Source of the DNA: Sphyrna mokarran
Lineage: Eukaryota
DNA: 64,000 nt
Direction: 5' to 3'
Assembly: GCA_024679065.1 (NCBI GenBank)
Contig: JAGIQG010000009.1
Location: forward strand, 89,590,001 to 89,654,000
Positions 25,442 through 56,905 of this stretch are shown here, in pieces (within the stretch, counting starts at the first letter, position 1; every line of letters starts with the position of its first letter). The notes under the pieces are model-generated. The model had not been told where the DNA came from, ran no database searches, and saw nothing but the letters and a program-made list of their open reading frames with translations. A program made the translations under genes and the position numbers.

Positions 25442-27580
<2,139 letters not shown>

Positions 27581-29367: not shown

Positions 29368-29596
29368 GATGTAGAGATGCCGGCGTTGGACTGGGGTAAA
29401 CTCAGTAAAGTTTTACAACACCAATTTTAAATCCAACCAATTTATTTGATAGTAAATTCGTGAGCTTTCGACTTTATAGCCTTCGTCAGGCAAACCAGAA
29501 CACTGCATTTGCCTGACGAAGGCTATAAAGTCGAAAGCTCGCGAATTTACTATCAAATAAATTGGTTGGATTTAAAATTGATGCTGTAAAACTTTA
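29368..29596. mobile_element. Penelope-like mini-element: two head-to-head pLTR copies plus tail
   Basis: About 90-bp inverted arms; TSD CTTCATGAATCCT at 29355-29367 and 29597-29609. Confidence 0.9.
29507..29546 (+). ncRNA. Minimal type I hammerhead ribozyme (inverted copy at ~29456-29494)
   Basis: AUUUGC-CUGACGA-A-GGCU(AUAA)AGUC-GAAA-GCU-C-GCGAAU: 6-bp stem I, 4-bp stem II, palindromic AGCU stem III, CUC cleavage triplet. Confidence 0.8.
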
Positions 29597-30547
29597 CTTC
29601 ATGAATCCTTGCAGTCTGTCTCGTAAATGTTGTGCAAGCATCAGTGAACATTACCCACTTTTGACCTTGTGATGCAAGGAAGATCATTGAAAATGGTTGG
29701 GTCTAGGTCACGACTCTGAGGAACTCCAACCACCACAACTATCTTCTTTTGTGCCAATTATGACTCCAACCAGCAGAGAGTTACCCCCCTGATGCCCATA
29801 GACTCCAGTTTTGCTGGGGCTCCTTGAGGCCCCTTTATATGAAGAGCAATCACTCTCATCTCTGAAATTCTGCTGTTTTGTCCATGTTTGAACCAAGGCT
29901 GCAATGAGTTCAGGAGCTGAGTGACCCTTGAGAAGCCCAAACCAAGCATCATGTTGTTGCTGTGCTTCTCTTAGGTAACCAAATAAACTTAAAGCAACAA
30001 ATTGAGGATAAATTGAAAAGCAGCCCCTTGAAGAGATATTGCATCAAAATAACAGAATCTCAAAAAAACTTAAAACATCAAAATAAAATGAAGGGGTCAA
30101 TAAGACATGACACGGAAGATCTTGATGCTGTGAGCAGACACTGCATACTCCCTTCCCAGGGAGAGGGGCAGGTAGTTCGAATGGATAACCCCTATAACCG
30201 CCCATTGTTTGGACTGATGAATGGCTAGCTGGCTTGATCCCAGAGCAAGTCCATGAGGATGTTCCCCTCTCTTCCTGAATCCTTCTCTGCACCAACTGTC
30301 TGAAAATCAGGAGCGTGGGACTGAAGTGCAACCAAAAAATAAAGTAACAGATTTTTCAGAAAACTGCAAAGCGGGGGGCTAGGTTGGATTTGTCCTGCTT
30401 TTTATGGACCTGGTCAATTTTCCACATTCTTCCATATCCTGGGTAGATGCCAGTGCTGTAACTGTACTGGAACAGCCTGGCTAGGGACATGTTTAGTTTT
30501 GGAGCACAAGGCTTTAGTACTATTGCTGGAATATTGTCAAGCTCATT

Positions 30548-30810
30548 AGAATAGAATAGAATCCATGCAGTGCAGAAAGAGGCCATTTGGCCCATGGAGT
30601 CTGCACTGACCACAATCCCGCTCAGGCCCTACCCCCATATCCCTACATATTTATCCGCTAATCCCTCTAACCTACGCATCTCAGGACACTAAGGGGCAAT
30701 TTTAGCATGGCCAATCAGCCTATCCAGCACATCTTTGGACTGCGGGAAGAAACCGGAGCGCCTGGATGAAACCCATGCAGACACAAGGAGAATATGCAAA
30801 CTCCACAGAG
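30548..30810 (-). mobile_element. HE1-type SINE fragment
   Basis: Tail agaatagaatagaatcc..gaggccatttggccc and core taaggggcaattttagcatggccaatc..gcaaactccaca. Confidence 0.7.
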
Positions 30811-33800
30811 ATTTTGCAGTGTCTGTGCCTTCAGCTATTTCTTGATATGGAATGAATGAAATTAGCATCTATGCTGCTTGGAACCTTATGAGGAAGCCAC
30901 GGTGAATCATCCAATTAACACTTCTAACTGAAAATGGTTGTAAATGTCTTTTACACTGATGGGCCGGGTTCCTCCATCATCAAGGTTGCGGAATGTTTGT
31001 TTCATCTATCACTCTCTCTATAGCAGGAAGTAGCTCCCTCCAGATAGATACACAAGTCCAGAACAAAGAATACTCTGAGAAACAAGTTCCATCTGTATTT
31101 CTTCTTTAATGGGTTTTAATTGTGATGCAGTTTTATAATATTTGGACCATTATTGCTTGTAAGAGATTGATAAATATAGTTATGGCTACTTATTGATTGG
31201 TACCAAACCAAAAAAGAAACAGGTCAGAATTCTTTTGTTCTGCCCTGTCACCGCTTTCAGTGAGAACAGAAAATTTGGTACTCAGTCAAATCTCCATTCA
31301 TTGCAGCAGGACTGGAGAGTCTCAGCTGCAAGTGAGGTCAGAGAATTCCAGTCAAGAATTCATATCCATTCAGAAACTGAATTGGATGCTTGGTGAACTA
31401 ATTACATACCAATTGCTTTCATAACTACTTGCTGTACCTGCATCTGTTGGAATTTACTCTGCAGGTTTACTCTCAGCCAGTTTGGCCACATTATGACCAC
31501 ACCTTTATCAAGTCCTGGAGTGGGACTCGAACTCAGAACTTCTGGCTCAGGATCAGGGAAACTATCCACTGCACCTCACAATCTCCCCAGTGCATTTATC
31601 CGGATGCATATTATTTTAGCCACAGCCAAGTTTCTAATATAACTTGAAATGTTTGTGGTGAACTAGAATTGCTGCCAATAGTCTGATTCAATCTGAAAAT
31701 GTTTCTTGGGTTCCTCAAGGGATAAGACATTCTGTAGGGAAATATAATTAGTTTTTGTATGAGGATAGTATGTGGGCATAGATGCCATTGTGTTACCTTA
31801 TGGCTCATGCCACTTGTCAGATGTGGCTGCTCTGCAATTCAAACTTGACAAAATCCTAGTATTAATCTGTGATGTTGAAACATCAAAATCAGAAATGGGA
31901 GAAGTATTTTATGACCACATACGTAAAGTACATCATTGGCTGCTGAGCACTTTGAGATGTCCTGGTGGTCACGCTGTGCTGCGTAAATGCAAGTGTCTTT
32001 CTTTTAATATTCAGAGAAATGTTCTCCCACCACATGACTATGCTACACTTCTTTCAAAATATACTTCATTCATAACATCTAGAAAGATCCCATAGTGTCA
32101 CATTTGATCAATTTTATTTAGATTAGGAGGAGGTGCCATATTTCATGTCAAACATTCTCTGATACAGACATTCTGAGGAACTTTAGACAACTTGAAAGAG
32201 CAGATGGTGAAATTTGAATTCCATAAATATCTGGAATTAAAAGTTGATATTGTCATAAAAATCCCATTTATTTCATCAATGCCCTTTAGAGAAGGGTAAA
32301 CTTACGTGGTCTAAACCACATATGATATTGAATGACAGAGCAGACTTGATAAGCTAAGTGGCTCACTTCTGCCATTATGTCTTTTGATCTTATGGAATCC
32401 AGGTCCACAGTAATGTGGTCAACTCTGAAATGCATCCGAAACGACTGAACAAACTACTCAGTTCAAGGACAATTAGAGATCTGCACAGCCTATGAATAAA
32501 TAAACAAAAAAAAAGTCCCTTTAAGTCTGGGATAAATCTATGACAGATGTCATACAGGGCAATCCATCAAGAATCAGGCTGGGCAGGATTTCACTACCAG
32601 TCCACACCAGTTCTTGGGATATGGAGTCCAGATGATAGGTCAAGGCTGAGCCTGTGTCTAATTACGTCATCTTGCGAGATATCCTGGCTGGAATTTTCCA
32701 ACCTCGCCTGCAGCTGGAACTCTCTAGTCCCACTGCAGTGAATGGAGATTTGACTGGATGCCAAAATTTTCCATTCTCACTGGTAAACGGTAATGATGTA
32801 TGAAACCTGTTTCTCTTTGGTTTTCACCAATAAGCAGCCATTTATTATCAAATTTCTTACAACAACAGCATTTGCTGATATAGATCACAACTGTCAGTTA
32901 TTAGTCAGCAGCCTCAGCCTGTTTCTATACACAGGGTCTGTGCAAATATGCAGTCTACAATTTAAACCTAGTTAAACTATGGCTATCCTAAAAGCCCAGG
33001 TAACTTGAAGATTTAAAATATATATATTGTCAAAGGCAGAAATGAATCTTTACAACATATCGGCAAATTAGTCTGTAACAAGAATTAATTGACTAATCCA
33101 TGATGTTTTTATCCAATAGCTCAGAAACCCAACTCTTCTCACATCAGATGACATTGATTTCATACCCGTTCATAACAGGATACATCTGTCCAAAACTGTT
33201 TCGTATACAACAGTTTAGATTATATTTGGTACACATCCTTTCACCATGTGGTAATTTGCATACAGCAAATTATACTCATACATGCATTTTTGCTAAATAC
33301 TTGTTACTAAGAATTAAGAAGCAGCAGCTTATTTTTGCAGTATCTCATCTACAAGTTCTGTTTAAACCAGAGCACAGGACAAAAGGAGAGATTTCATTGA
33401 GTGTTTTTCCAAATGGTGAAGTTATTTAAATTTCTCCTGCTTGAGCAATTATTGACAAGAGGCAAACAATTTGAAATGATCACGGTGATTGGGAGAGAGG
33501 TTAGGTGAATTTCTTTAGTTGTTTGAACAGTGTCTATATTTCAAAAGTGTACTTCATTAGTCAAAAAAGCACTGTGGACCTTCAGGCACTGACCTTTCTT
33601 TTCGGGATTCCAGCGTTTCCAATTTTTCTTTTCGTCTTGTTTTTTACTATTTATGCTCTTTTTTAATTAAAAAAAATTGCTGGCTAAAACTGCTCTACCT
33701 GTGAATTCTCACAGGGAGTGGAGATGCAAAGAGAATCATTTATTTTAAAGGGGAAATCAGACCAGTATTTGAGACAGTGGCAGAGATTGGTTAGTCAGAT

Positions 33801-34504
33801 GACAAGGTTCACAGAAGCTGTCAATGGTGGGTCAGAGTTCAGACACTAAGACCTGGATTTCTGCTACCACGACAGGTTTCCCGAGTGGGGAGATTTCCGA
33901 ACACCTCCAAGCCCCACGATGCATCAGTTTAAGACCCTGACTTCAAATTCAAGTTCAATCTCTGTCACTTACATCTATAGTACAACTATCTCCCATTCTC
34001 CAGCTGTCACCCCATTTGTTACTATGTCAAACAGATCCACTGTCTCGCTCAGCAGCCGGCAAGATCCTAAAGCTTGTTGCTCACCAGACCTCTTTCCCCT
34101 GATAACATTCATTCCTGCCCTTGCTGCCAAGAATATTAAACTTTCACAATCAATGCCCCACTTCTGGAATCTCCTACTCTGTCTGCCAGCATACTGATCA
34201 TCCAGTGGGCCAGAACTATTGTAATTTTGATTGATGAGCTGAAGGGGAGTGAATTCTGCAGCAGATCAGGGACCTTCAAGAGAACACAAGGCTCCCAGGA
34301 GATTCTTGGTAACCCATCACTGCAGGACCAGGGGAGACAAGTTTAGAGAACAATTGATTGATACTGCTCTCTGGAAAGGGTCATAGACAGCAGTTAGTGA
34401 GACAAATTGGAACACAAAACAGAGCTGAAGAGCTTTTATGTTCCCCTTGTGGTTTTTAATAGACAAGTTTATCTCAGTGAAGGGAAGGAGCAGTAATGTT
34501 TTGG

Positions 34505-34750
34505 GCCTATCCACATAACCCCTTTACCCTATTTACCCTAGCTAGTCCCCCTGACACTAAATGGCAATTTAGCATGGCGAATCCACCTAACTTGCACATC
34601 TTTAAACTGGAGGAGGAAACTGGAGCACCCGGATGAAACCCACGCAGACACTGGGAGAATGTGCCAACTCCAACAGACAGTGACCCAAGCTGGGAATCGA
34701 ACCCGGGTCCCTGGCACTATGAGGCAGCAGTGCTAATCACTGTGCCACCC
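34505..34750 (-). mobile_element. HE1-type SINE
   Basis: gggaatcgaacccgggtccctggcactatgaggcagcagtgctaatcactgtgccacc (reverse-complement tRNA-like head). Confidence 0.8.
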
Positions 34751-35125
34751 CAATATTGATGGATCTCCAATGCAGTAACCAAGGCTGATCAATTCCAGAT
34801 TGGAGTTATTCACTTCATTGCTGGAACTTGTGTCTTTTAGACACCATTGGATTTTATGACCTCTTTTGTCCCTTAACCTTAAAATCCCAGCCAAGTTCAA
34901 CATCCCTTCCCATTATCTGCCCCTTGCCTGCTCTGATTCCCATAGAGGGTGGGCAGTAAAATTCTGATTTGTATCATGGATTTCCACTCTCACCGAGTGA
35001 GAACTCATGACAAATGTCAAGGTGCAAAAGCAGTGAGTTTCTGATAAAACGCAATTCTGTCTCTCCCCAAGTCCACAGATCCTGGTTTGATGATGTTGTT
35101 AAACTCCAGTGAGTGACTCCATATC

Positions 35126-35160
35126 TCAGGCCTGGGAAGATGATTCCCCACTACCAGCAC
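35126..35160 (-). CDS. MHC class I exon 7, cytoplasmic (RAGSGESSSQA*)
   Basis: Acceptor ttttcatttcatag; Ser-rich tail; TGA stop. Confidence 0.7.
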
Positions 35161-35242
35161 CTATGAAATGAAAAGTTTCTGTTAAATGTTTTACAACATG
35201 GGGAATGTCCTCTACAAAGATATACAGAGAGAGGTAGAGGCA

Positions 35243-35310
<68 letters not shown>

Positions 35311-38300
35311 AAGACACACAACACATCGAAAAAGAAAGACGCCAATGGAGACAGATAGACACATTTCATCAAGGATAGACAGCACACTCTTACCAAGAGA
35401 GTCTGGCACTGTCTTACCAAGGCAGACAGGGGGATACTGACAGTGAGAAACAGTAATGCATCAGAACAGACAGACGCACAGCTTCATGTTTGTCTTGTTT
35501 ATTTACTTACGATTTGCTGAACTATAAGCAATTTTTTTCTCTACTCCTACAAGGGACAGAAACACAAACAAATCTTTCATTACAAACAGCTCCTTCATCC
35601 TGTCCAGTCCCTTCATTCATTCATTACTGCTCATCACCACAGCCCCACTCCCCCAATCCACAAACTCACCAGGCAAAGTTTCTAAATTATTTGAAGCTAA
35701 CATAACTGAGAGTTTCCTACCTGCTCTCTTCCACACAATTGCACAAATGACAATGGTAATCACTGCAACAACAGCAACAATAATTCCAACATCCAAACCA
35801 AAATATGTTTCTCGTCTAGTTTCTGGAATAACTCTGAACTTCCCATCTGTGAGGAGAATGAGAAAATAATCAATGAATAAACACACCCACTATTCATTCA
35901 CAAACTATTGTATTAAAGCTGCATCTGATATTGAGTTAGAATCTGTGATGTGATGGACAGTCTGACCAAAAAACACAAACATATGAATTAGAAGTAGGAT
36001 TAGGCTTCTCGGCCCCTTAAGTCTCCTCTGCCATTCAGTAAGAACTTGGCTGGTCTGACTCTGGCTTTAACTCCATATTCACGCCTACTCCTATACATCC
36101 CTACTGTTTCCAGTAGCTTAGCAATCCTCTGTCTGTTTGTTCCAACTGCACCATGAGCTCTTATTTTGTATAGTAGCCTTTGATGTGGCACCTTGTTAAA
36201 TTCCTTTTGGAAGTCTAAATGCAGCACATCCATAGGTTCCCCTTTATCCACATTGTTTGTTACTTCTTCAAAAGCTCCTAATAAACGAGTCAAGCTTGTT
36301 CCTTCTTTAACAATTCCATGTTGATTCTGCCTGATTGCATTAAGATTTTCTAACTTCCCTGCTATAACATGCTTATTAATAGAATCCAGCATTTTCTTGA
36401 TCTAACTGGCCTACAGCTTCCTGCATTCTGTCTCTTTTCTTTCTTGAATAGAGGAGTTCACATTCAGTATTTTCCCATCTAAAGGGACCTTTCTGGAATT
36501 CTTGGAATTTTGGAAAATTAGGTAGAATGGCTCAGTGTGTCTGGGATGACACTCCTGTGAAACTCTTTGGGATGTTTATCTATATCAAAGTGCTAAATAA
36601 ATTGAGCATGTTGTTCACTTGCAGATATTGGAACTATGTGTCGTTCAAAAGTCCTTTCAAATCACCTACACAAAAGTGATTGATCCTCAAATAGACTCAG
36701 AATAGCCTTGTGGAAATATAGTGATGGGAAGTAAGAGATTTCTAGATAAAGAGAAGGTGAGATTATTGATCACAGATACTATTCCAATTCTGGAAAGGGC
36801 AATGCACTGGCAGATTCAAAGGCAGTGTAACTGGAGAGAATTAAGGGAGTGATTTCATAGCTGGGTATAAACTTTGATCAACAAATGGTGGGGAGGAGAT
36901 TGAGGAGAGATTTTAAAGCAGATTACAGAAAGAAACCAGAACTATAGAGTGCTGATGAGGGACCTATCTAAATACAGACTGGGATAGTGTGAAGAAAAAG
37001 GTGGAATGAGGAGAATTTCCTTAAATTTATACAGGAGAACTGCCTTGACTAGCAAGACAGAAATCAATATTGGAGTTCTTGATAATGAAGTTGGACAAAA
37101 TACGGCACCATTTAGAAAACAGTAATCAAAACATTAGGTTGCTTCCAATTTCCACCCCCCTCTCATCTCCAACATTTCCCTTCTCTTCCTTGACCTCTGA
37201 CCAGCAATATTCATTGCAGTCCCACCAGATCCCAATTACAGCTTTTCCGTAAGGATTCTATCCCATTCCCCCCTCATCTTTCAATTAGGTATATTATAGT
37301 CCTCAGAACTCAACAACTTTCAACTGTGATCTTTCCCGTCATCTTGACTTTTTAAAAACTATATCCCAAACACTTTTTGTCTCAATGGAAAAACTCCCCT
37401 TTCTCTCACCCACTGGACCATCTGTCACTTGTTCTTTATTTTTGCTTTCACTGAGCATTTATTTTCCCATTAACAATTCTGACATCTGCTACTACTACTA
37501 GCACTTTTTTCTGCTGTTAATGTTTCTCTGTCTTGTGACTACACGTCTTTGTTGGTATTGTTCCTCGCTCCCACCAATCACTGACTCATTACTCTGTTCC
37601 AGCTGATCCATCCCCTCTTATACATTATATAATCCATCACATTTCTCCCTCTCTTTCGCTCTGAAGAAGATTCATATTCTCCACAGACGATGTCGGGCCT
37701 GCTGAGCTTTTCCCACATATTCTGTTTTTGTTCTAGATTCTAGGGTTTGCAATATCTTGCTTTTTAGGTTTGGAGTGGAGATGGAAAAGAACAAGCAAAA
37801 ATGAAAATAATCACCCAGAGAAGAGCTAATTTGAAAATTAGTCAGATTGAAAAGGGATCTGACCCAGGTAAATTAGTTTTCTAAACATTAAAAGTAGGCA
37901 AGGAGGGATTGGGCTGGTTAGGGACTACAAACTAAACCATCATCGGGAAATATAGAGCCTGGCTGAGGTATCAATGAGTATTTTGCATTTGTTTTCATTA
38001 AAGAGGAGGCTGCCAATGACACAGTAAAGGAGAAGGTTGGCAAGACAAAGTACCAGACATTGAAGTTCTCTCTAGAGCAAGTCTACCATCAGTCCACACA
38101 CTGATGAGAGCACAGACCCGGTGGGCAAGTCATGTCATCTGTATGTCAGACGAGCGCAAACCCAAGCAGTTCCTTTTTGGGGAACTCTCTGCTGGAAGAC
38201 TCTCGCATGGAGGGCAGAAGAAACATTTTAAAGACCCACTCAAGGCCTCCCTGAAGTCACTTGACATTGATATGACCACCTGGGAAATGCTAGCATAAAA

Positions 38301-41300: not shown

Positions 41301-44300
41301 TAAGAAAGCAAATGATATGTTGGCCTTTGTTAAAAAGGGGTTGAAGTATATGATTAAAGAAGCCTTATTGCAATGACATAGCTGACACCTGGGAGGCTGT
41401 GTACAGTTTTGGTCTCCTGTGGCACTGTGGGAGGCATGGTGGCACAGTGATTAGCACTGCTGCCTCACAACATCAGGGACAAGTGTTTGATTCCCAGCTT
41501 GGGTCACTGTCTATGTGGAGTCCGCACATTCTTCCTGTGTCTGTGTGGGTTTCCTCCAGGTGCTCTGATTTCCTCCCACAGTTCAAAAGACATTCTGGTT
41601 AGGTTCTTTGGCCATGCTAAATTCTGCCTCAGTGTCCCTGAACAGGTGCCAGAGTGTGATGACTTGGGGATTTTTCACAGTCATTAGTGTTATTGTAGGC
41701 CTACTTGTGACAATAATAAACTTTATCCAAAAAGGGATATACATGTCCTGAAGTGTACAAAGATTCACTAGACTGGTCCCTGAGATCAGATAAGTATGCT
41801 CTGAGGAGAAATTGAGTAGACTACACCTGATGTCTTAATGAAAGGTGACTTCATTGAAACATGTAAAATTTGGGAAGTGTGAATGTTCAAAGAGACCCAT
41901 GTATCCTTTCCATGGGTCACTAAAAGTTAGCATGCAGATGCAGCAAGCAATTAAAGTGAATTTTATGATGGCCTTAATTACATGATGATTAAAGTATAGA
42001 AGTAAAGATCTCTTAATACAGCTTTACAGGGTCTTGGTATGACCTCAGCTGGAGCACTGTGCAAGTTTGGGTCACCTTACCTAAGAAAGGTTATTCAGAA
42101 AGAATACAACTGAGGTTCATCAGACAGATCCCTGGGATTGCAGGATTGTCGAATAGAGAGAGATTGAGGAGACTGGGTCTGTATTCACTGGAGTTAAAAC
42201 TGAGAGATGACCTTACTGAAACGTGCAAAATCTTTTGGGGGGAAGGGAGGACTGAGAAGGAAGGGGGATGCCGAGAAGGAAGGGGGGGCTGAGAAGGAAG
42301 TGAGGGGCTGAGAAGGGAGGAGGGGTGCTGAGAAGGAAGAGGGAGATGAGAAGAACGGGGTGGGGGCCAAGAAACAAGGGAGGGGGAACGAGAAGGAAGG
42401 GGGGGCGAGAAGGAAGGGGAGGACAAGAAAAAAGAGGGGGCGGTTGCTGATGACACGGTAGATGTGAATAAGATGTTTTCTCTGGCTGGTGAGTTTAGTA
42501 TCAGAGAAAAAAATCTTAGACAGATTATTGAGAACTGAGGGGAGGAGAAGCAATTGCTTCATGTGATGGGGGTGAATCTTTGGAATTGCCCTACCCAAGA
42601 GGTCCATGATAAAGTTCAGGAGTCTAATTACATCAAATGAGATGGAGATAACCTCTGTTCCTAATTCGTAAAGGACTTGACAGGATTGTGACTGTAATAA
42701 ATAAACTTAATACAAGGATGGAGACTTGAGAAGTCACGTACTCCGGCTAGGGAACAGAGAACACGGGGACAAAAACAGAAAATGTTCGAAAACCTCAGCA
42801 GGTCTGACAGCATCTTTGGAGCTAGGGAGCAGAACCAATATTTCAAATCTGAATGACCCTTCGTCAGAAAACACGGAGACACACTTAGGATAAGATCTGC
42901 TGTTTAGAATGGAATTGAAGAGAAATTTCTTCACTCAAAGGATTTGTGAATCTTCGGAATTCTGTGCCCTGGATGTTCAGACCCTGGCAGTATTAATAAC
43001 AGATTAATAGATCTTGGGATACTAAGAGAATTAAGTGATGTTGGGCTGTGAGGCTGAGCTGGAGGATTAGCTAGGAACCTACTGAATAATGGAGAAGGCT
43101 CAACTTTATAATGTTCAAAATTATTGTAAGATACAGGGAGGTTAGGAACAGGGAGAGAGAGTGAAAGAGAGAGAGATATTGGTGGTGGTAGGGTTGGGTG
43201 GGTGGCACCGATAAACATTGGGGAGATAGAGTGACGCAGGGTGGAAGTTGGAGAGAGTGAAAGCTCACCGCCACTCTGGTTGGTGCGATTTAAGGCTGTC
43301 TGAATATTGGTCTGTCCAACGTGCTCGGAGCTCCTTAGGAACTGTGTCTGCTGCTCCCAGTATTCAGCGCTCTGACACTGTTCCATCCATTGCTGCCGTG
43401 GAACTAGTTTCCGAAGATCACTGTCGTAGTAATCAATCGGGATCTCGTCTACATAGCCAACAGCTACAAATTCGGGAAGGCCAGGAATTGGAGTCATCGC
43501 AGTGTAGAAATACCGGAGTGTGTGAGAGACTGAAACAGAGAGAGACAAATGATAGAATATGAACCCCACAAATGGCAAGAGACAGACATCAGAGCCCCTG
43601 TAAATAAACCCCAACACAACACAGAGCCCCAATTTCTTCAAATTAACTTATTTTTCAGCTGCAACTTCTTTGGTGGCATGTGACTCTACAGCAGATGCCA
43701 GACTGTTGTGTTGGGATGTATTTACAGGGGCACCAGTTCCAAAGCACTGTGTTGACTCTTAACTGCCCTCTGAGCCACTGAATTAAGGACAATTTGGAAT
43801 TGAATGTAGTGTTACAATTAATGATAGCCCAGACAGGGCCATATCAACCAATTAATAAAAAAAAATTACATTGAGTTGGTATGTATTTCGATGAGTTTAG
43901 AAGATAATAGGCATGTCCACTATGAGTCTCACCAGCTTTTACAAATACACTAGAGAAAAGCATTATTCCTGGTTGTATCACAGCTTGGTATGACTCCTGT
44001 TCTGTCCAAGATTGCAATAAACTACGAAGAGTTGTGAACAAAACCCAATCCATCATGAAAACCTGCCTCCCATCCATTGACACTGCCTACAATTCCTGTA
44101 GCCTCAGAAAACAACCAGCATAATCAAGCATGCACTCTGGCAATTCTCTTTTCCACCTTCTGTCTTTGGGAAAAAGAAACAAAAGTTTGAGGACAGGTAC
44201 CAATCAACTCAAGAACAGCTTCTTTCCTGCTGCCATCAGACTTTTGAATGGACCCACCTCGCATTAAGTTGATCTTTATCTACATTCTGGCTACGAACTG

Positions 44301-44546: not shown

Positions 44547-44687
44547 TTTTACTTCCTTGAACAGTTTGTGAGGAATCCTTATGGCTCTGCGTTGTGCCCA
44601 GTTCAGACTAGATAATTCCTTTGAGCTGTGCCCTGTCTAATGGTAGTCTAACAGGTACACAAACAGCTTTAAGAACTGCTCCACAGA

Positions 44688-44710
44688 TTAGGTCAACAGT
44701 TACAGGAAAC
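44688..44710 (-). promoter_or_regulatory. Putative X1/X2-box-like element of the class I promoter
   Basis: Minus strand GTTTCCTGTAAC (RFX-like) followed by TGACCTAA (CRE-like), ~150 bp upstream of the ATG. Confidence 0.35.
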
Positions 44711-44837
44711 CACAAAGATTATCAGCAGCAACTCCAGTGTGCTCAGCCTAAATGTAAACAAGTTGATGAATGGTGCAGAGATTAATGGTGCAGGAAGGTT
44801 TGAAAACTCAATTGACTGGGATGTTCCAATTGATTAG

Positions 44838-45094
44838 TAAGAGGTCTGACAATACCAATTTTAAGTCCAACTGATTTATTTGATAGTAAACTTGCAAGCT
44901 TTCGGCCTTTGTAGCCTTCGTCAGGCGAATGAGGTGTTCTGGTCTGCCAGAACACCTCATTCGCCTGACGAAGGCTACAAAGACCGAAAGCTTGCAAGTT
45001 TACTGTCAAATAAATCGGTTGGATTTAAAATTGGTGTTGTCAGACCTCTTACTGAGTTTACCTCAGTCCAACGCCAGTATCTCTACATCATGAC
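44838..45094. mobile_element. Penelope-like hairpin mini-element with two hammerhead motifs (44890-44930 minus; 44959-44999 plus)
   Basis: About 105-bp inverted arms around tctg, then the tail ...ctctacatcatgac; flanked by TCCAATTGATTAG at 44825-44837 and 45095-45107. Confidence 0.9.
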
Positions 45095-46561
45095 TCCAAT
45101 TGATTAGTAGTCATGATATACAGATGCCGGCGTTGGATTGGGGTGGTAAGAACTCAGTAAGAATTTAGCAACACCAATTTATAATCCAACCGATTTATTT
45201 GATAGTAAAAACGCGAGCTTTCAACACTCTGTGTCTTCCTCAGGCAAATGCAGTGTTCTGGTCTGCAATAGCACACATCAGCACAGACAGTCAGAGATTG
45301 CTGATTAGAATGCGAATCCTTACATCTAACCTGCTATTGAAGTGTTAAAGTGGCGAACAATGTGTGTGAAGGGAATCCTGAGCATTGTTGGAGAATTGTG
45401 TGTTTTCTCCAGACAGCACAGTAAGTGAGGTTTTTTGCTAACCCAGGCAAGTTACGGGGGTTACAGATAGTGTGTCATGAAGCCAAGATCCCTGTTAAGA
45501 GCGTCCTCATGTGTGCGGAGCTTGGCTATCAGTCTCTGCTCAGCGACTCTGCGCTGTCGTGTATCACGAAAGCCCCCTTGAAGAACATTTACCCGCAGGT
45601 CGGAGGCCGAATGCCCATGACTGCTGAAGTGTTCGCCCACAGGAAGGGAACTGTTTTGCCTGGTGATTGCTGAGCGATGCTCATTCATCCGCTGTCGTAG
45701 TGTCTGCATGGTCTCCCCAATATACCATGCTTCGGGACATCCTTTCTTGCAACGTATTAGGTAGACAACGTTGGCCGAGTTGCAAGTGTATGTACCGTGT
45801 ACCTGGTGAATGGTATCCTCACGTTTGATGATGTCGTCCATGTCTATGATCCGGCATGTCTTGCAGAGGTTGCTGTGGCAGGGTTGTGTGGTATTGTGGT
45901 CACTGTTCTCCTGAAGGTTGGGTAGTTTGCTGCGAACAATGATCTGTTTGAGGTTGTGCGGTTGTCTGAAAGCAAGAAGTGGGGGGGTGGGGATGGCCCT
46001 AGCGAGATGTTCATCGTCATCAATGATATGTTGAAGATTCCGGAGAAGATGTCGTAGCTTCTCCGCTCCGGGGAAGTACTGGACAACAAAGGGTACTCTG
46101 TCCACCGTGTCCCGTGTTCGTCTTCTGAGGAGGTCAGTGCGGTTTATCGTTGTGGCACGTCGGAACTGTCGATCGATGAGTCGAGCGCCATATCCTGTTC
46201 TCACGAGGGCATCCTTCAGCGTCTGGAGGTGTCTGTCACGATCCTCCTCATCTGAGCAAATTCTGTGTATGCGGAGGGCTTGTCCATAGGGAATGGCTTC
46301 TTTAACGTGTCTAGGGTGGAAGCTGGAGAAGTGGAGCATTGTGAGGTTGTCTGTCGGTTTGCGGTACAGTGAGGTGCTGAGGTGACCGTCCTTGATGGAG
46401 ATGCGTGTTGCAGACCAGAACACTGCATTTGCCTGAGGGAGACACAGAATGTTGAAAGCTCGCGTTTTTACTATCAAATAAATCGGTTGGATTATAAATT
46501 GGTGTTGCTAAATTCTTACTGAGTTCTTACCACCCCAATCCAACGCCGGCATCTGTATATC

Positions 46562-49241
46562 ATGACTACTATCGACACCGCATACTGCCGGATCCAAGTG
46601 GAGAGGATCTCCAAGAGGATTGCACATATCGACACAGACATCAAGTTTCTACAGAGATGCAAGAAGGCAGACAGGATACCAAAGGGACTACAGATCACGA
46701 ACCCACTCAGGTCAACCTATAACACAGACTACGCTGAGAGGCTTTGCTGTCGCACCTCTCTCACACTCCTCAATCACCTCATACACCAGCTCTATAGCAA
46801 ACGCCACACCCTGGAAAGTAAAATGGAATACATATTCTCAACTTGCGCTCAGGACGCAGATCAGTTGTGAAACTTTGCCAAGCAGATGAGACAAAGAAAC
46901 TACACCATTTACATGCACACCAAGAACAGGAAACTTGAAAAACTTGGCATCGCCACCAGCAACAACCAAGCCTCCCTTGGCACCACAGTAGAAAACAACA
47001 CTACCGCAGGGAGGTCCATTGTTAACCTGTCGGACTACACACTTCAATCAGAGGAAATCGAAGTTCTCAGCCGAGGGCTCAATTTCTGTCCCACCACCAA
47101 AATGGACCCCATCAGTCTCGCAGCAGATACAGAGGAATTCATCAGGCGAATGAGGCTGCGTGAGTTCTTCCACAAACCCCAAGAGGCTAATAGTGGACTC
47201 AATGAGACAGCTAATGAACCAGAACAGCCGACAGAGGGATCCGCAGTGCAGCAACCGAAGAGGAATGAATCCAATTGGACTCCTCCGGAAGGCCGCTGCC
47301 CCCGACTGGACATGTATGCCCAAGCCATCAGGAGGTGCGTGAACACCAGATTTATCAACCGCACTTACAAGACAGTCCCGAACATCACCCAAGTACAAAG
47401 CAAGGCCATCCGTGCTCTCAAGACCAACCGCAACATTGTCATCAAACCAGCAGACAAAGGAGGCGCCACCGTCATACTGAACAGAACGGACTACTGTGAA
47501 GAAGTGTACCGACAACTAAACAATGAGAAACACTACAGACAGTTACCAGCAGATCCAACCAAAGAACACACTCGTCAACTCAACACTCTGATCAAAACCT
47601 TTGATCCGGACCTTCAGAACACCCTCCGGGCTCTCATTCCACGTACTCCCCGCATTGGAGATCTCTACTGCCTCCCAAAGATACACAAGGCAAACATACC
47701 CGGCCGTCCCATCGTATCGGGCAATGGGACCCTGTGTGAGAACCTCTCCGGCTATATCGAGGGCATCCTGAAACCCATCGTACAAAGAACCCCCAGCTTT
47801 TGTCTTGACACTACGGACTTCCTACAGAAACTCAGCACACATGGAGCAGTTGAACCAGGGACACTCCTTGTCACAATGGATGTCTCGGCGCTCTACACCA
47901 ACATCCCCCACGACGATGGTATTGCTGCAACTGCCTCAGTACTCAATGCCAACAACTGCCAGTTTCCGGATGCAATTTTACAACTCATCCGCTTCATCTT
48001 GGACCACAATGTCTTCACCTTCAACAATCAGCTTTTCATCCAGACACACGGAACAGCCATGGGGACCAAATTCGCACCTCAGTATGCCAACATCTTCATG
48101 CACAGGTTCGAACAAGACTTCTTCACCACACAAGATCTCCAACCAAGGTTATATACTAGATACATTGATGACATCTTTTTCCTTTGGACTCATGGTGAAC
48201 AATCATTGAAACAACTGTATGATGATATCAACAAGTTCCATCCCACCATCAGACTCACCATGGACTATTCTCCAGAATCAGTTGCATTCTTGGACACACG
48301 CATCTCCATCAAGGACGGTCACCTCAGCACCTCACTGTACCGCAAACCGACAGACAACCTCACAATGCTCCACTTCTCCAGCTTCCACCCTAGACACGTT
48401 AAAGAAGCCATTCCCTATGGACAAGCCCTCCGTATACACAGAATTTGCTCAGATGAGGAGGATCGTGACAGACACCTCCAGACGCTGAAGGATGCCCTCG
48501 TGAGAACAGGATATGGCGCTCGACTCATCGATCGACAGTTCCGACGTGCCACAACGATAAACCGCACTGACCTCCTCAGAAGACGACACGGGACACGGTG
48601 GACAGAGTACCCTTTGTTGTCCAGTACTCCCCGGAGCGGAGAAGCTACGACATCTTCTCCGGAATCTTCAACATATCATTGATGACGATGAACATCTCGC
48701 TAGGGCCATCCCCACCCCCCCACTTCTTGCTTTCAGACAACCGCACAACCTCAAACAGATCATTGTTTGCAGCAAACTACCCAACCTTCAGGAGAACAGT
48801 GACCACAATACCACACAACCCTGCCACAGCAACCTCTGCAAGACATGCCAGATCATAGACATGGACGACATCATCAAACGTGAGGATACCATTCACCAGG
48901 TACACGGTACATACTCTTGCAACTCGGCCAACGTTGTCTACCTAATACGTTGCAAGAAAGGATGTCCCGAAGCATGGTATATTGGGGAGACCATGCAGAC
49001 ACTACGACAGCGGATGAATGAGCATCGTTCAGCAATCACCAGGCAAAACAGTTCCCTTCCTGTGGGCGAACACTTCAGCAGTCATGGGCATTCGGCCTCC
49101 GACCTGCGGGTAAATGTTCTTCAAGGGGGCTTTCGTGATACACGACAGCGCAGAGTCGCTGAACAGAGACTGATAGCCAAGCTCCGCACACATGAGGACG
49201 GTCTTAACAGGGATCTTGGCTTCATGACACACTATCTGTAA
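46562..49241 (+). pseudogene. Penelope RT + GIY-YIG ORF (about 893 aa if repaired): one TGA and two 1-nt deletions
   Basis: IVIKPADKGG, LYCLPKIHK, GTAMGTKFAPQYANIFM, RYIDDIFF; Cys linker PCHSNLCKTC; NVVYLIRCKKGCPEAWYIGET; stop at 46868-46870; deletions near 48585 and 48628 relative to the in-frame inverted arm. Confidence 0.92.
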
Positions 49242-49453
49242 CCCCCGTAACTTGCCTGGGTTAGCAAAAAACCTCACTTACTGTGCTGTCTGGAGAAAAC
49301 ACACAATTCTCTAACAATGCTCAGGATTCCCTTCACACACATTGTTAGCCACTTTAACACTTGAATAGCAGGTTAGATGTAAGGATTCGCATTCTAATCA
49401 GCAATCTCTGACTGTCTGTGCTGATGTGTGCTATTGCAGACCAGAACACTGCA

Positions 49454-49492
49454 TTTGCCTGAGGAAGACACAGAGTGTTGAAAGCTCGCGTT
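49454..49492 (+). ncRNA. Hammerhead ribozyme motif in the 3' pLTR (copies at 45210-45248 minus and ~46428-46466 plus)
   Basis: UUUGC-CUGAGGA-A-GACAC(AGA)GUGUU-GAAA-GCU-C-GCG; stem I is short (3 bp); the 46.4-kb copy has CUGAGGG. Confidence 0.65.
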
Positions 49493-50317
49493 TTTACTAT
49501 CAAATAAATCGGTTGGATTATAAATTGGTGTTGCTAAATTCTTACTGAGTTCCAATTGATTAGAGCAGTGCTGATTATCTTAGGGATTGACAATGTCTCA
49601 GTACAAATACAAGCTGTGTGGGTAGGACGGGAGACACAGCTCCCATCTTTCACACTGGTAATTGTGAGGTGGGAATGGGATATGGTTGACAGGAGTGAAG
49701 GAGAGTGAGCACCTTCCATGACAGAGCAGAAATTGGAATCCTTATTCCTGGCTCAATTTGCTCTCAATCTGAAGGTGATGTTGGGAGTGAATTGTAAGTG
49801 TTGTTGTGTTGTAATGAAGTGCATGCTTTAAATTGACAATTCAACATAGCCATTGCTAAATTAGGGAATCATTGTTCAACTATATACACCAGTTCACTCT
49901 GATCATCAGGGAGGAACTGGGAGAGTTCTGGGAAATAAATCTGATGTCAGGATAGATGAGCTTTATTCACTTTCCCTCAGCATGCAGTTTTTGGAATTAA
50001 TATAGTTGTCCATCCACAAAGGATTGGGCTGGGGTACACATTGTGAGGGAAATGGGTGAATATGTTTGAGCTGCAGAGCCTCAGGAAAGTCAGTTCTCAG
50101 CTGTGGAAGGACCGAGACTGGAATAGTGTCAGTCTACAAGGATGCTGAGAGCTGAGATGGGATGAGGGAGAAGGGGAGGAGGATTAGAGTGTGAAGAAAG
50201 AGAAGTGGGGTATTGTTGTCTGGTATCTAACACAGAGGCCTGAAGCTTGTATAGTTAAATGGTTATTAGTAAACCATAATTATATAAATAGTTCTGAGGT
50301 ACAGTTCTCATTATGAA

Positions 50318-50660
50318 TGGCATAGTAGCACAGTAGTTAGTACTGTTGCCTCACAGCACCAGGGACCTGGGTTCAATTCCGGCCTTGGGTGACTGTCTGG
50401 GTAAAGTTTGCACATTCTCTCTATGATTGCATGGGTCTGGTGCTCCAGTTTTTCCCAGTCAAAAGATGCACAGGTTAGGTGGATTGGCCATGCTAAATTG
50501 CCCTTTAGTTTCCCAAGATGTGTAGGTTAGTTGATTTATCATGGTAACTATGCAGGGATAGGTCAGGGGAGAGGGGCTGGGTAAATTACTCTGTCAGAGA
50601 GTTGGTGCCAACTCAATGGGCTGAATGGCCTCTTCTGCATTGTAAGGGTGCTATGATTTG
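50318..50660 (+). mobile_element. HE1-type SINE
   Basis: ggcatagtagcacagtagttagtactgttgcctcacagcaccagggacctgggttcaattcc head. Confidence 0.8.
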
Positions 50661-51254
50661 GTGCTACCTTGTGCTGGTTCCTAGAAGACTTTACTGTTAT
50701 ATTCAGTCCACTATTATGTGAATCTGGACATCAGAAAATAGGTGGTACTACCTCTGTAGTCCCACATTAACCATTACTCTCCGAAATACCTTTGTACCAA
50801 TCTTCTCCTTCCAAGATTTTATCCAACTATATTTACAATATGCTCTTCATGCTTCCACCCTAAAGTCTCTGATTTTACAATTCAGATAATCTGGAAGCTT
50901 TATGACTTGTTCTTTTCACATTCAGAGTCGGTGTAGTCGCAGTTACTTCAGCCTGAGTTTGCATGTTTGGAGTTCCTATTGTAGTAGTTGTTGTTTCAGA
51001 TACTTGGGTCTCTACAAATGATTTAATTCTTATGCTTTTCTGTGTTCTATGTTTCCTTATCAACCATCATTTTCCTTGGTCAGATATCAACGGTTATCTT
51101 GTTCCTGCCAGAGGAAATATTCGTGACATTCATTCATTCATTGGACTCAGGTGTGGTCCTCCATAATCTTCCTGGAAGTTGATGATGCAAAAAATTATCA
51201 CAGAATCATAGAATACAGTGCAGGAGGCCTTGTTCACCCCTTCCCACGAGTTAT

Positions 51255-51659
51255 CCTCTCCCCCTTCCTCTCCTCTTCCCCTCCCCTTGTTCCCCCCTCT
51301 CCCGTCACTCTCTCGTTCCCCCTCTCCCATCACCCCCTTGTTCCCCCCCTCTCCCACCCCCCTTGTTCCCCCTTCTCCCCATCCCCCTCATTCCCCCCTT
51401 CCCACACCCCCTCGTTCCCCCTCTCCCGCACTCTCTTGTTCCCCCCTCTCCCCGCACTCTCTTGTTCCCCCTCTCCCCTTATCCCCTAGTTCCCCCCTCC
51501 CCTCACCCCCTTGTTCCCCTGTCCCCTCACCCCCTGTTCCCCCTGTCCCCTCACCCCCTCGTTCCCCTCTCTCCCCTCACCCCCTCATTCCCCTCTGTTC
51601 CCTCACCTGCTTGTTCCCCCCCTCCCCTTACTCACCCCCTCGTTTCCTCCTCTCCCCTC
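51255..51659. repeat. Polypyrimidine C-rich low-complexity tract (left part)
   Basis: Repeats of ccccttgttcccc / cccctctccc; continues at 62307-63390 on the other side of the ERV. Confidence 0.9.
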
Positions 51660-53530
51660 TGTTGGTGCAAGTGGGCAGACACGACTGCTATGGACTCAGA
51701 GTCAGGTTCAACAGTGGTACAGCTTTATTTTAATGTCGACGGAGGTGCAGTCAGGATATACAAACTGAACTCTCCCGAAAGCACTCTAAAGGCCTCCGCA
51801 ATGGGCTAAAGTTGTACTCAAACTTTGGTACATTGTATGATTCAAATGTTAATGTTATGTTTACAGTATTTAGAACATAGAACATAGAACATTACAGCGC
51901 AGAACAGGCCCTTCGGCCCTCGACCAATTAAGAAAAAGCAATGACCCTCTAACCTAAACCATTCCCTTTTCATCCATAAACCTATCCACGGACCTCTTAA
52001 ACGTCCCCAAACTTGGCGCATCTACAACTGCAGCAGGCAGGGCATTCCATACCCTTACCACCCTCTTGGTAAAGAACCTACCTCTGACATCCGTCCTATA
52101 ACTACCACCCCTTAATTTAAAGCTATGTCCCCTCGTGCTAGCTTTCTCCATCCTAGGAAAAAGGCTATCACTGTCCACCCTATCTAAACCTCTAATCATC
52201 TTATATGTTTCAATAAGGTCTCCTCTTAGCCGCCTTCTTTCTAACGAAAACAATCTCAAATCCCTCAGCCTCTCCTCATAAGACCTGCCTTCCATACCAG
52301 GCAACATCCTGGTAAACCTCCTCTGTACCCTCTCCAATGCCTCCACATCTTTCTTATAATGTGGGGACCAGAACTGCACACAATACTCCAAGTGCAGCCG
52401 CACTAGAGTTTTGTACAGTTGCAACATGACGTTGCGGCTCCGAAATTCAATCCCCCTACCAATAAAAGCTAAGACTCCGTATGCCTTCTTAACAACCTTA
52501 TCGACTTGATTGCCAACTTTCAGGGATCTATGCACACATACACCAAGATCCCTCTGTTCATCAACACTATTAAGAGTCCTACCATTAGCCCTATACTCTA
52601 CACATTTGTTATTCCTGCCAAAGTGCATTATCTCACACTTTTCCACATTAAACTCCATTTGTCACCTCTCGGCCCAGCTCTGCAACTTGTCCAAGTCTCT
52701 CTGCAAACTATAACACCCCTCTTCACTATCTACCACTCCTCCGACTTTGGTGTCATCCGCAAATTTACTAATCCATCCTTCTATGTCCTCATCCAGATCG
52801 TTTATAAAAATTACAAACAGCAGTGGCCCCAAAACAGATCCCTGAGGCACACCACTTTTAACTGAACTCCATGATAAATAGTTTCCATCAACCACCGCCC
52901 TCTGTCTTCTATCAGCTAGCCAATTCCTGATTCAATTAGCTAAATCACCCTCAATCCCATACATCTGCATTTTCTGCAGAAGCCTTCCATGGGGAACCTT
53001 ATACTATGCCTTACTAAAGTCCATATATACCACGTCAACTGCCTTACCCCCATCCACCTCTTTGGTCACTTTTTCGAAAAACTCCATTTGATTCTGACCA
53101 TTCTGTTTTGATGTTTTCAAGTGTCGTATCGATGTTTTAAATACGGTAATTGTTTCTGTCTGATGGGTTTATCAATGGTTTAGAATCTCTGGAGTTTCTT
53201 GAACAATGGGTGTTTGGCTGATCTCAGGAAGTTTGTGAGGCCAGGAAGGCTTCCTTAGTTATGTTAATCCTTAGGTGTCTCCACAGAGATTTACTTGATT
53301 AGGTCAGAGGTGCTGATTTGATTAGATGGGGGTTTACTTTTAATTTAGTTTCTGTTGGTGCCATCCTGTCCGGTTCCCTTTGTGTGTTAGCCCTTGTTTG
53401 CATTTCAAAAACATGTCTTTTGCCTTCTTGTCTGGATCTGTTGTGATCTTTAGTGGGGAGGTTCTGAGTGCAGCTTTAGTCTGCTTCCATATTGTGTACC
53501 CAATTTCAGAAGATTTGTTGTCCAATAACA
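51660..53530 (-). repeat. ERV 3' LTR (about 650 bp, interrupted by CR1)
   Basis: Collinear with 61673-62306; AATAAA on the minus strand at ~51724-51729; purine tract GACAGGCGGGAAC immediately upstream (53531-53543). Confidence 0.92.
51872..53085 (-). mobile_element. Young 5'-truncated CR1 inserted in the 3' LTR
   Basis: Highly similar to 339-1553; ORFs 51954-52658 and 52662-52895; attt flanks both sides. Confidence 0.95.
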
Positions 53531-55040
53531 GTTCCCGCCTGTCGGTCGGGAGCAGACTTGTTCTGCCTCCTCAGACTGATTTCTTTAACAAATTTTGTGT
53601 CCGGTGCTCCCTGTGTTTGCACACTGCAGTCGTGCAGTTTAGGGGAGGCTCGAGTTTTGTCAAATTAGGTATATGCAGGAGAAGTCCTCCTAATTTGCCC
53701 CACTTTGCCAATCATTCTGATTAGTTTCCTCCGTGTTTTAATTTTCTTGTGCTGGTGGTAAATTTAGCATGTCACTATTCCCCAAGATATTGCGAGTATG
53801 AGTTGGATGGTGACAGTATGTGTGAGATTGGCCGGATCCAGGGGTGAATGTCCACATTTAAGCCCCAGTCCCATACCCTCTATGTCCATATTTGGCTGTG
53901 TAGGGCTGACTCTGTGTCGTGCTCTAGGGTTTTAATGTGGATTTATAACTGGTAGTACAGCTGAACGGAGTGTCCCACTTTGAGATGGAGCTCTCTCAGT
54001 ACTTCTGCTAGGTGTGGGATGGGAGCCTGTTCTTGCTTTCAGTAATATTTGAGCTCATCTCTCAGTGGTCTGTGGATTAAGTGTCAGGGTTTGCCTCCTT
54101 CAAATGTTGGTGATGTGGATCTGGCCAATAGTGACTGGTCTGTGAGGGGTGAAGCAAAAGTTTGGGCTGGGGATTGGACATGCCAGTCCGTTGTATAACA
54201 AAGGATGTTTTTGCTGTGGCTACGCAATACCTGCCTCGTCCTCCATATCCTTTGTCTGGGCAAAGTGTGGGTCTGTCGGTATGATTTCTAGAGTATAGGG
54301 CTATGTTTGATTAAACCCACATTCAGCTGCCTCTCCTTGCCTCAGTGGGTGAGGGCAAATAGTTATCTCTCTCCTTTGTTTGCATCCTGAGAGGAAGGTA
54401 CTGAACATCATGCATGAATTGAAATGGCTATGACTTCAGTTAGGTGGTAGCGGACAGAGGTATTGCTCCTAACAACACCGATGTTCTCAATCTGGAAGAT
54501 AGGGAATGGTCCTGAACCTGGTGTGACCATTGGTATCAATTGGATCATCCCTACTCCCATGTCCTTGCTAACCTCGCAGTCGAGAATCACTGGATACATC
54601 TGGGTCATTTCTTTCAAGGTCTGAGTTTCCACCACCCCTTCTGATCTGCGAGTTGTGCCAGCTGGATGCTGTCAATCCAATCGGGCGCCTCCCTCCTGTG
54701 TACCTCGTCCAAATTAAGTTGGAAATGGGTTATCATCCACTGACCATACGCATGGCACAGCTGTCCCTGTTGTACCCGCGTTGTGTTCTCTCTCTCTCTA
54801 TCTATGAGGCAGTTAATGGTACAGGCGTGCGTTTCCAATATTGTGATCCCATCTAGTTGGATATGGGCGCCCCTCTCCCCTAAAAGAGCTCAGCCTGTTG
54901 ATCTAGTGACTGCTGCAGGATATCTTTCATCAGCCCCTTTAATTGTTTGATCTTATTATTGATGCTCTGTACGCCAATAGAGTTGAGCATGGTGGACCCG
55001 GTATTTATTCCTGTCAGGACGTCATTGACTATAGCCCTTT

Positions 55041-55044
<4 letters not shown>

Positions 55045-55077
<33 letters not shown>
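55045..55077. repeat. (TG)n microsatellite just before the env cleavage site
   Basis: Direct reading. Confidence 0.95.
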
Positions 55078-55078
<1 letters not shown>

Positions 55079-55125
55079 GCCTCTATAGTGTGTTGCTCCT
55101 ATCGCATCTATATCCCCTTTATGGT

Positions 55126-56495
55126 TTCTTTCTTTGGACTCATGGTGAACAATCATTGAAACAACGATATGATGATATCAACAAGTTCCATCCCACCATC
55201 AGACTCATCATGGACTATTCTCCTGAATCGGTTGCATTCTTGGACATATGCATCTCCATCAAGGATTGTCACCTCAGCACCTCACTGTACCACAAGCCCA
55301 CAGACAACCTCACAATGTTCCATTTCTCCAGCTTCCACCCTAAACATGTTAAAGAAGCCATCCCCTATGGACAAGCTCTCCGTATACACAGAATTTGCTC
55401 AGATAAGGAGGATTGTGACAGACACCTTCAGACGCTGAAAGATGACCTCATGAGAACAGGATATGGTGCTCGACTCATCGATCGACAATTCCGATGCGCC
55501 ACAGCGATAAACCGCAACGACTTCAAAAATCAAATACGGGACATGGTGGACAGAGTACCCTTCATTGTCCAGTACTTGCCCGGAGCAGAGAAGCTACGAC
55601 ATCTTCTCCAGAGTCTCCAACACATCATTGATGGAGATGAAAATCTCGCCAGGGTCACCCCCCCCCCACTTCTTGCCTTCAGACAACTATGCAACCTCAA
55701 ACAGACCATTGTTCTCAGCAAACTACCCAACCTTCAGGAGAACAGTGACCACAATACCACACAACCCTGCCACAGCAACCTCTGCATGACATGCCGGATC
55801 ATCGACATGGGATGACATCATCACACGTGAGAATACCATCCACCAGGTACACGGTACATACTCTTGCACTCGGCCAACGTTGTCTATCTAATACATTGCA
55901 AGAAAGGATGTCCCGAAGCATGGTACATTGGGGAGACCACGAGGACACTACAACAGCGGATGAATGAACATCGCTCGACAATCACCAGGCAAGACCGTTC
56001 CCTTCCTATTGGCGAACACTTCAGCGGTCATAGGCATTCGGCCTCCGACCTTTGGGTAAGCATTCTCCAAGGTGGCCTTCACGACACACGACAGCACAGA
56101 GTCGCTGAACACAGACTGATAGCCAAGTTCTGCACATATGAGGACAGTCTCAACAGGGATTTGGGTTCATGTCACACTATCTGTAACCCCCATGACTTGC
56201 CTGGGTTTGCAAAACCTCACTTACTATACAGTCTGGAGACAATACAATCTCTTTAACCTGTGCTCAGTGCTCCTTCCACTCACATTGTTAGCCACTTTAA
56301 GACTTGAATAGCAGGTTAGGTGTAAAGATTCGCATTCTAATCAGTAATCTGTAAACAGTCTGTGCTGTTACATGTGCTCTCTGAGACCAGAACACCTCAT
56401 TCACCTGATGAAGAGGTCGAAACACCTCAAAAGCTTGTGAGTTTACAATCAAATAAATTGGTTGGACTTAAACTTGGTGTTGTCAGACTTCTTAC
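55126..56495 (+). mobile_element. 5'-truncated, decayed Penelope-like copy inserted in env, with hammerhead-like motif at 56399-56442
   Basis: Homologous to 48175-49550 (FFLWTHGEQSLKQ..YIGET); AUUCAC-CUGAUGA-A-GAGGU..ACCUC-AAAA-GCU-U-GUGAGU (G12 lost). Confidence 0.9.
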
Positions 56496-56905
56496 TATGT
56501 GGATCTGTAGCCACACAGATAAGGAGTACATATTGGAATACATCCTACAGTTCTCAGAATATGGTGCAGCCGGCACGCACAACACCTCGGATGTATTAAA
56601 CATTATTTCATGGAATTGTTAATAGGTGGTGTGCCCCTGGAAGACGACACTCGTCACCAAGGTCGCAGTGAGGATCGTCCTCCAGACAGTCAGCATTATC
56701 CTGGAGAAGGGGTGGGGAGGGTACACAAAGCACGATGGCTGCCAGATATTAGGATCTCAGTATTAACTATATTTTAACTAACTTACTTAAGCATGCACAG
56801 ACATCTATATACATTTATCAGAGCCATGATTGACATGTGGCTCTCCTCCGTGCTGGAAATGAAGGTTGTTAGCTCGACTTCCGCTGTGTAGATAAAGGTG
56901 GTTAA

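Follow-up and report, generated by a model that had tools for sequence, protein, structure and literature searches.

Putative Minimal Hammerhead Ribozymes in an Abundant Penelope-Like Element Lineage of Sphyrna mokarran

Introduction

A stretch of 64,000 nucleotides from the shark Sphyrna mokarran (GCA_024679065.1, contig JAGIQG010000009.1, positions 89,590,001 to 89,654,000 of the forward strand; here called the window, with positions counted from its first letter) contains eight copies of a motif resembling the hammerhead ribozyme (HHR). This raised the questions of which element carries the motif, whether the copies retain the form of a ribozyme, and whether a hairpin found upstream of the core belongs to a conserved RNA structure. 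An initial annotation, made from the sequence alone, had assigned the copies to minimal type I HHRs with a palindromic AGCU, located in the pseudo-long terminal repeats (pLTRs) of several subfamilies of Penelope-like elements (PLEs), and had itself called this class known. The present analysis supports that assignment. The copies very probably are minimal type I HHRs in the pLTRs of one abundant, recently amplifying PLE lineage, and self-cleavage would likely be weak and aided by AGCU-paired dimers or by a protein. In the copies, a conserved core in an identified host element is combined with a covarying stem II, an eroded stem I, and no conserved upstream hairpin.

For the minimal HHRs of PLEs, an extra nucleotide after A9, the G10.1-C11.1 pair, the palindrome, and covarying families within one genome are described in those parts of PMC4209133 used here. 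The motif class is thus already known, and the present copies extend it by one host and a large family. A literature search with partial coverage identified no paper on this shark PLE hammerhead family or on its upstream hairpin.

The Hammerhead Motifs and Their Host Element

The motif CUGAnGA-A-stemII-GAAA-GCU-H is present in eight copies (Table 1), all at the sites proposed initially, and a relaxed form of the pattern gave eight matches in the window compared to a mean of 0.22 and a maximum of 2 in 100 shuffled sequences. The core CUGANGA and GAAA with a UH triplet is intact in six of the eight copies; the two others carry the single core substitutions already noted in the annotation, A9G at 46.4 kb and G12A at 56.4 kb. 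The eight motifs trace to four insertions, all of one PLE lineage: the fold-back palindromes at 29.5 and 44.9 kb, an element with three pLTRs contributing the copies at 45.2, 46.4, and 49.5 kb, and an older fragment at 56.4 kb.

On the element at 46-49 kb, RVT_1 and C-terminal GIY-YIG domains were identified, together with the DKG motif and the CX4CXXC linker, so that the HHR lies in the pLTR of an element coding for a reverse transcriptase (RT) and a GIY-YIG endonuclease. The open reading frame (ORF) begins with the ATG at 46562; a stop near 46868 and a frameshift near 48.6 kb interrupt it. According to the clade criteria given in the consulted part of PMC8557442, a CX2-5CXXC linker in front of a C-terminal GIY-YIG domain characterizes the Neptune type. 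Since the CX4CXXC linker and the C-terminal GIY-YIG domain agree with these, the linker motif points to a Neptune-type element.

The subfamily of this element is young, because of the 41 matches listed for its pLTR, 35 show 100% identity over 173 nt (two of them are the window's own). One 12-bp target duplication is present three times, at 44826, 45096, and 49552, two different PLE subfamilies having inserted side by side at one site. In the genome of 2.77 Gb, the core followed by AATAAA gave 52,563 exact matches compared to 7 for a control pattern, and copies with CCAGAACA upstream of the core gave 17,499 matches (control 0). A basal group of the same lineage (copies L134, L139, L155, L109, and L131) shares the core, AGCU, and AATAAA, and is devoid of the upstream hairpin.

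Table 1. Elements, hammerhead copies, and upstream hairpin in the window.
Feature	Position	Strand	Remarks
Fold-back palindromic non-autonomous pLTR insertion	29367..29596		12-bp duplication at 29355 and 29597
Second fold-back pLTR insertion	44838..45095		Between copies 1 and 2 of the 12-bp target duplication
Inverted 5'-truncated PLE 3' end (tail, pLTR, endonuclease region)	45108..46408	-	
Near full-length PLE	46408..49552	+	5' pLTR from ~25 nt before the core; RT, CX4CXXC linker, GIY-YIG, 3' pLTR
Older PLE copy, 5'-truncated	55126..56496	+	86% identity to the 46-49 kb element
Minimal hammerhead copy	29456..29495	-	C3 29489; stem I pair 1 broken
Minimal hammerhead copy	29507..29546	+	C3 29513; stem I 6 bp, stem II 4 bp
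Minimal hammerhead copy	44890..44930	-	C3 44924; GCAG/CCUCA upstream, unpaired
Minimal hammerhead copy	44959..44999	+	C3 44965
Minimal hammerhead copy	45209..45249	-	C3 45243; youngest subfamily; stem I 3 bp
Minimal hammerhead copy	46427..46467	+	C3 46433; A9G
Minimal hammerhead copy	49453..49493	+	C3 49459; predicted cut after 49487; AATAAA 17 nt past cut
Minimal hammerhead copy	56399..56442	+	C3 56405; G12A; stem I 6 bp; UGAG/CUCA upstream
Hairpin UGCAG-ACCAGAACA-CUGCA	49435..49453	+	5 bp; restricted to group A; within the 5'-truncation pile-up zone, likely a start-site region

Covariation and Conservation of the Ribozyme Fold

Three sets of copies were used. An alignment, designated A1, contains 73 copies (78 fetched, minus five with junction junk or indels, plus the 56.4 kb copy, minus one indel copy); its cells are not independent, which limits the pairing percentages below. 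A tree was built from the flanking sequence of 86 copies, with 4 of 90 left out. For core conservation, 100 copies were picked without using the core, of which 85 were scored and 15 were not.

In A1, the hammerhead stems are paired in 86% of the cells, compared to 22-42% in slid registers. The replacement of stem II with its pairing kept, as the annotation had proposed, was confirmed: the quoted pairs are present, two-sided changes were identified at all four pairs, and 90.9% of the cells pair. On the flank tree, all nine internal changes at the inner three pairs end paired. This compensatory variation is accompanied by the unpaired nucleotide after A9. Stem I closes the motif and is 83% paired in A1. 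On the tree, its second pair shifts from A-U to G-C via a mismatch, and in the youngest subfamilies the distal pairs have eroded to U.U. The covariation claimed for stem I therefore stood in part: the quoted pairs exist and one core-proximal pair covaries, but the stem as quoted holds for the 29.5 kb plus-strand copy and the 56.4 kb copy only. In the 45-49 kb copies, which belong to the youngest subfamilies, AUUUGC/GCGUUU leaves 3 contiguous bp; a C.A mismatch is present in the 44.9 kb copies, and the 29.5 kb minus-strand copy has lost the first pair.

The core is intact in 56 of the 85 copies, most of its positions deviating in 0-2 copies, with N7 varying freely. G8 and G12 each deviate in 12 copies, losses which may represent CpG decay after insertion. 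A palindromic minimal stem III was identified, with A15.1, G, C, and U16.1 kept in 84, 85, 83, and 85 copies, respectively, where the selection of copies had tolerated two mismatches in this 7-mer. Taken as a whole, the sequence evidence supports the ribozyme assignment well.

The Upstream Hairpin

The annotation had also described an upstream hairpin covarying around a constant loop, possibly an unrecognised tertiary or RT-recognition element. The constancy of the loop was borne out: the loop sequence is conserved, the stem is not. In some subfamilies the stem is unpaired or absent, and a two-sided change is essentially limited to a single split between groups A and B. In the window, the hairpin is represented by a single UGCAG/CUGCA element, with a loop of 9 nt, and by a single UGAG/CUCA copy whose register differs (loop of 10 nt), the shifted pair at 56.4 kb having a probability of 0.03. 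It is absent from all four copies at 29.5 and 44.9 kb, and in the 44.9 kb minus-strand copy GCAG stands opposite CCUCA. On the tree, group C without the hairpin is followed by TGAG/CCTCA (4 bp, shifted register), then by GGAG, then by GCAG or GTAG with CCTCA, which is unpaired, and then by group A with TGCAG/CTGCA (5 bp), a form which arose once. Exact counts for the CCTCA arm are 1,029 with TGAG, 2,344 with GGAG, and 1,078 with GYAG (4,451 in total); a reading of UGAG/CUCA as a singleton was rejected, since its 1,029 exact copies form a subfamily. Repeated compensatory changes that would have preserved the pairing from one subfamily to the next were not found for this stem. The conserved features are instead the sequence CAGAAC and, six bases ahead of the core, a CA.

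A role as a conserved tertiary or RT-recognition element was not upheld, the hairpin being absent in the basal group and broken in subfamilies with 1,000-2,300 exact copies. RT recognition is more likely to occur downstream, because the genomic 3' ends cluster in the downstream tail. It is improbable, though arguable, that in the group A subfamilies, if not elsewhere, the hairpin acts as a genuine RNA element, placed at the transcript 5' end and aiding folding or RT binding where stem I is eroded. Of the 53 group A copies whose upstream sequence is intact, 44 keep all five Watson-Crick pairs, the hairpin has about -4.7 kcal/mol alone and a probability of ~0.55 in context, and after its single appearance it was kept in all later subfamilies. 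In register, 83% of the A1 cells pair, with one pair C-G versus G.U, and 30 of the 73 rows break one pair. However, 3,422 of the 4,451 CCUCA copies carry GGAG or GYAG arms, the 5' arm changed first and uncompensated, the shifted register does not outperform shuffles (461/500), and RNAalifold does not predict the hairpin for A1. In addition, a templated fold-back mutation would be expected to cause just such a two-base change, with a perfect inverted repeat as its outcome. The 5-bp hairpin would likely be a late, subfamily-specific by-product.

Two further observations were made in this region. The near-invariant loop CAG (49442-49444; A1 columns 25-27) is complementary to C3-U4-G5 of the core (49459-49461; columns 42-44). 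RNAalifold pairs the two in 71-72 of the 73 copies, with no covariation, which is only a lead for an inhibitory pairing. A possible further stem, ATCAGCA...TGCTGAT, was seen by eye in the 3' untranslated region (49393-49421).

Ends of the Copies

Copy ends were mapped for the first 100 sequences matching a downstream anchor. The 3' ends cluster at two sites separated by about 40 nt, of which the second coincides with the ATG. Sixty copies are truncated within 180 nt: relative to C3, 33 end at -25 to -1 and 10 at -100 to -26; further truncations lie at 0 to 27 (11 copies) and one base past the predicted cut (4 copies). When fold-back arms are merged, about 25 independent events remain at -25 to -1 by our own tally. 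Because the 5' truncations pile up in this zone, the window element begins at -25, and the turning points of both palindromes lie near -20, the zone -25 to -1 is suggested to contain the RNA 5' end and the transcription start region. This is read from genomic ends, for which stalling of the RT on structure is an alternative. In older subfamilies, TATATG is located 29-30 nt before the CA at -7/-6, and this CA is kept in at least 90% of the rows. We take TATATG and CA to be a TATA box and an initiator. The conserved CAGAAC...CA would then likely be promoter or initiator sequence. For the D. virilis Penelope, the known pLTR promoter is described as TATA-less in the part of PMC2377424 consulted.

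From these ends, a replication route may be proposed. Transcription of the element would begin about 25 to 5 nt ahead of the core, and the RT would start at one of the two sites in the downstream tail and copy back across the mostly uncleaved ribozyme. Often it would stop near the RNA 5' end and fold back, giving the short palindromic insertions.

Cleavage and Alternative Explanations

Several results weigh against active minimal HHRs with starts just upstream of the core. In a covariance-model scan of the window, no Rfam hammerhead family was matched at E<=1; only microRNA models matched, on palindromes. Stem I has 2-3 contiguous bp in the youngest subfamilies, in which the TATA-like box also decays, and the 5' ends spread from -27 to 0 with no single sharp peak (70 listed rows, by eye). 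The predicted cut site is read through in 96 of the 100 end-mapped copies, and because of this most templates are probably uncleaved or religated. The 4-bp AGCU duplex is weak, and the cofolding minimum is not the double-hammerhead fold, although cofolding centres several dimers on AGCU. Neighbours within 5 kb are inverted in 21 cases and on the same strand in 3, and with so few close same-strand pairs, cis dimers are rare. Dimer cleavage of minimal hammerheads is cited in PMC6765202, as far as that text was available, and on this analogy dimeric cleavage of the hammerheads found here is plausible.

The read-through and the eroded stem I would also suit a motif kept for a role other than cleavage, as a protein-binding fold or a promoter-proximal structure, with catalysis lost in the young subfamilies. 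In vitro, insertion still occurs with mutants of the anole HHR (PMC11167929), and Naiads proliferate without a canonical HHR (PMC8557442), according to the portions of both sources used. Such a non-catalytic role is unlikely, as all catalytic positions and U16.1 are fixed across subfamilies, position 17 is G in 1 of 85 copies, and the anole HHR is described as cleaving with protein (PMC11167929). A local excess of junctions just 3' of the cut is no more than a hint against it, being small and possibly a filter bias. Of the first 100 of 340 matches on one contig, 95 supplied the 90 junctions that were read, 84 of them without an indel. Among these 84, 68% map within three bases on the 3' side of the cut compared to 38% in simulations (filter bias possible), and 1% in the two bases 5' of it compared to 25%, neither value being reached in 60 uniform simulations. 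A check four bases further 5' gave 72 junctions. After a rough filter correction, about 170 junctions per base remain at the 5' check, 250 at the peak, and 70 at a downstream control, a small excess. We consider it improbable that the tens of thousands of truncated copies record, besides a start cluster just 5' of stem I, a minor RNA end at the cut, with a new 5'-terminal hairpin having taken over in the youngest subfamilies as stem I shrank to 2-3 bp; if true, their ends would document in genomic sequence that a PLE ribozyme cleaves in vivo. Two copies, L116 and L126 (G000:C1, ~808 kb and 1.649 Mb), share an inversion junction one base past the predicted cut, as a re-amplified composite copy or a segmental duplication.

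An intron in the pLTR, known from the D. virilis Penelope, might instead have its 3' splice site in the conserved upstream sequence; the D. virilis intron end is placed at the 5' end of helix I in the consulted part of PMC4209133. A nearly invariant AG at -21/-20, a nearly invariant CAG at -17 to -15, and upstream GT and CTRAY-like words would agree with this. No GT..AG joint was found in contigs of 7 distinct runs (several only presumed to be RNA, and contigs drop rare forms), some contigs cross the region unspliced, although contigs show neither ends nor strand, and none of 100 genomic copies is spliced. An intron is thus very improbable, and minimal HHRs with weak self-cleavage remain the preferred explanation.

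Neighbouring Sequence

An exon for the alpha-1 domain of a major histocompatibility complex (MHC) class I protein was identified at 43270-43524 on the minus strand (best PDB match 6lup_A, E 1e-23), 1.3 kb from the insertions at 44.8-49.5 kb; it marks the host as a jawed vertebrate. Clusters of C2H2 zinc-finger repeats with an 84-bp period, some with stops, lie at 7694-8839, 19231-20400, and 25876-27524. The segments 423-1562 and 51954-52661 are presumably RT fragments of CR1/L2-like long interspersed nuclear elements, and 56906-59274 (minus strand) is taken to contain pol fragments of LTR retroelements (RNase H-like and integrase-like ORFs).

Comparison to Known Systems

The shark copies resemble the metazoan PLE minimal HHRs of Cervera and de la Pena 2014 (PMC4209133, as far as consulted) in their type I topology in pLTRs, the extra nucleotide between 9 and 10.1, G10.1, the palindromic 15/16 region, a short stem I, many covarying families per genome, and mostly dispersed or inverted copies. 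They differ in stem I, which has shrunk to 2-3 bp in the youngest subfamilies, in stem II, with mostly 3-5 bp compared to 7-8 bp in the S. mansoni families, and in copy number, with more than 52,000 compared to the 2,000-9,000 quoted there. The AGCU form may already stand in the supplementary alignments of that paper.

In the Anolis Poseidon element PAc (Frangieh et al. 2024, PMC11167929, in the sections used), two RT start sites likewise bound a tail of 30-40 nt downstream of the HHR, RT starts in this tail were shown in vitro, and uncleaved RNA is the main template, as it probably is here. However, HHR and tail are located upstream of the ATG here and inside the ORF in PAc, and the CX4CXXC linker is absent from Poseidon. 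Elements of the Neptune clade share the C-terminal GIY-YIG domain, the CX2-5CXXC linker, and a partial tandem with an inverted 5'-truncated copy; Nematis has the same linker, and the placement here follows the linker motif. Non-LTR retrozymes, reported in one chondrichthyan genome (bioRxiv 10.64898/2026.07.22.740005), are also short non-autonomous pLTR derivatives with a type I HHR. They form head-to-tail tandem arrays, whereas the short insertions described here fold back as inverted copies. No tandem array of HHR-bearing units in head-to-tail order was found in the window, where the copies are fold-backs or pLTRs.

With a young lineage of more than 50,000 copies and a ladder of subfamilies, the starts and stops of the RT can be read out from genomic copies. 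The ladder can show to what extent the ribozyme may decay in an element that continues to spread, and the copies bear on the question of the in vivo role of the PLE hammerheads.

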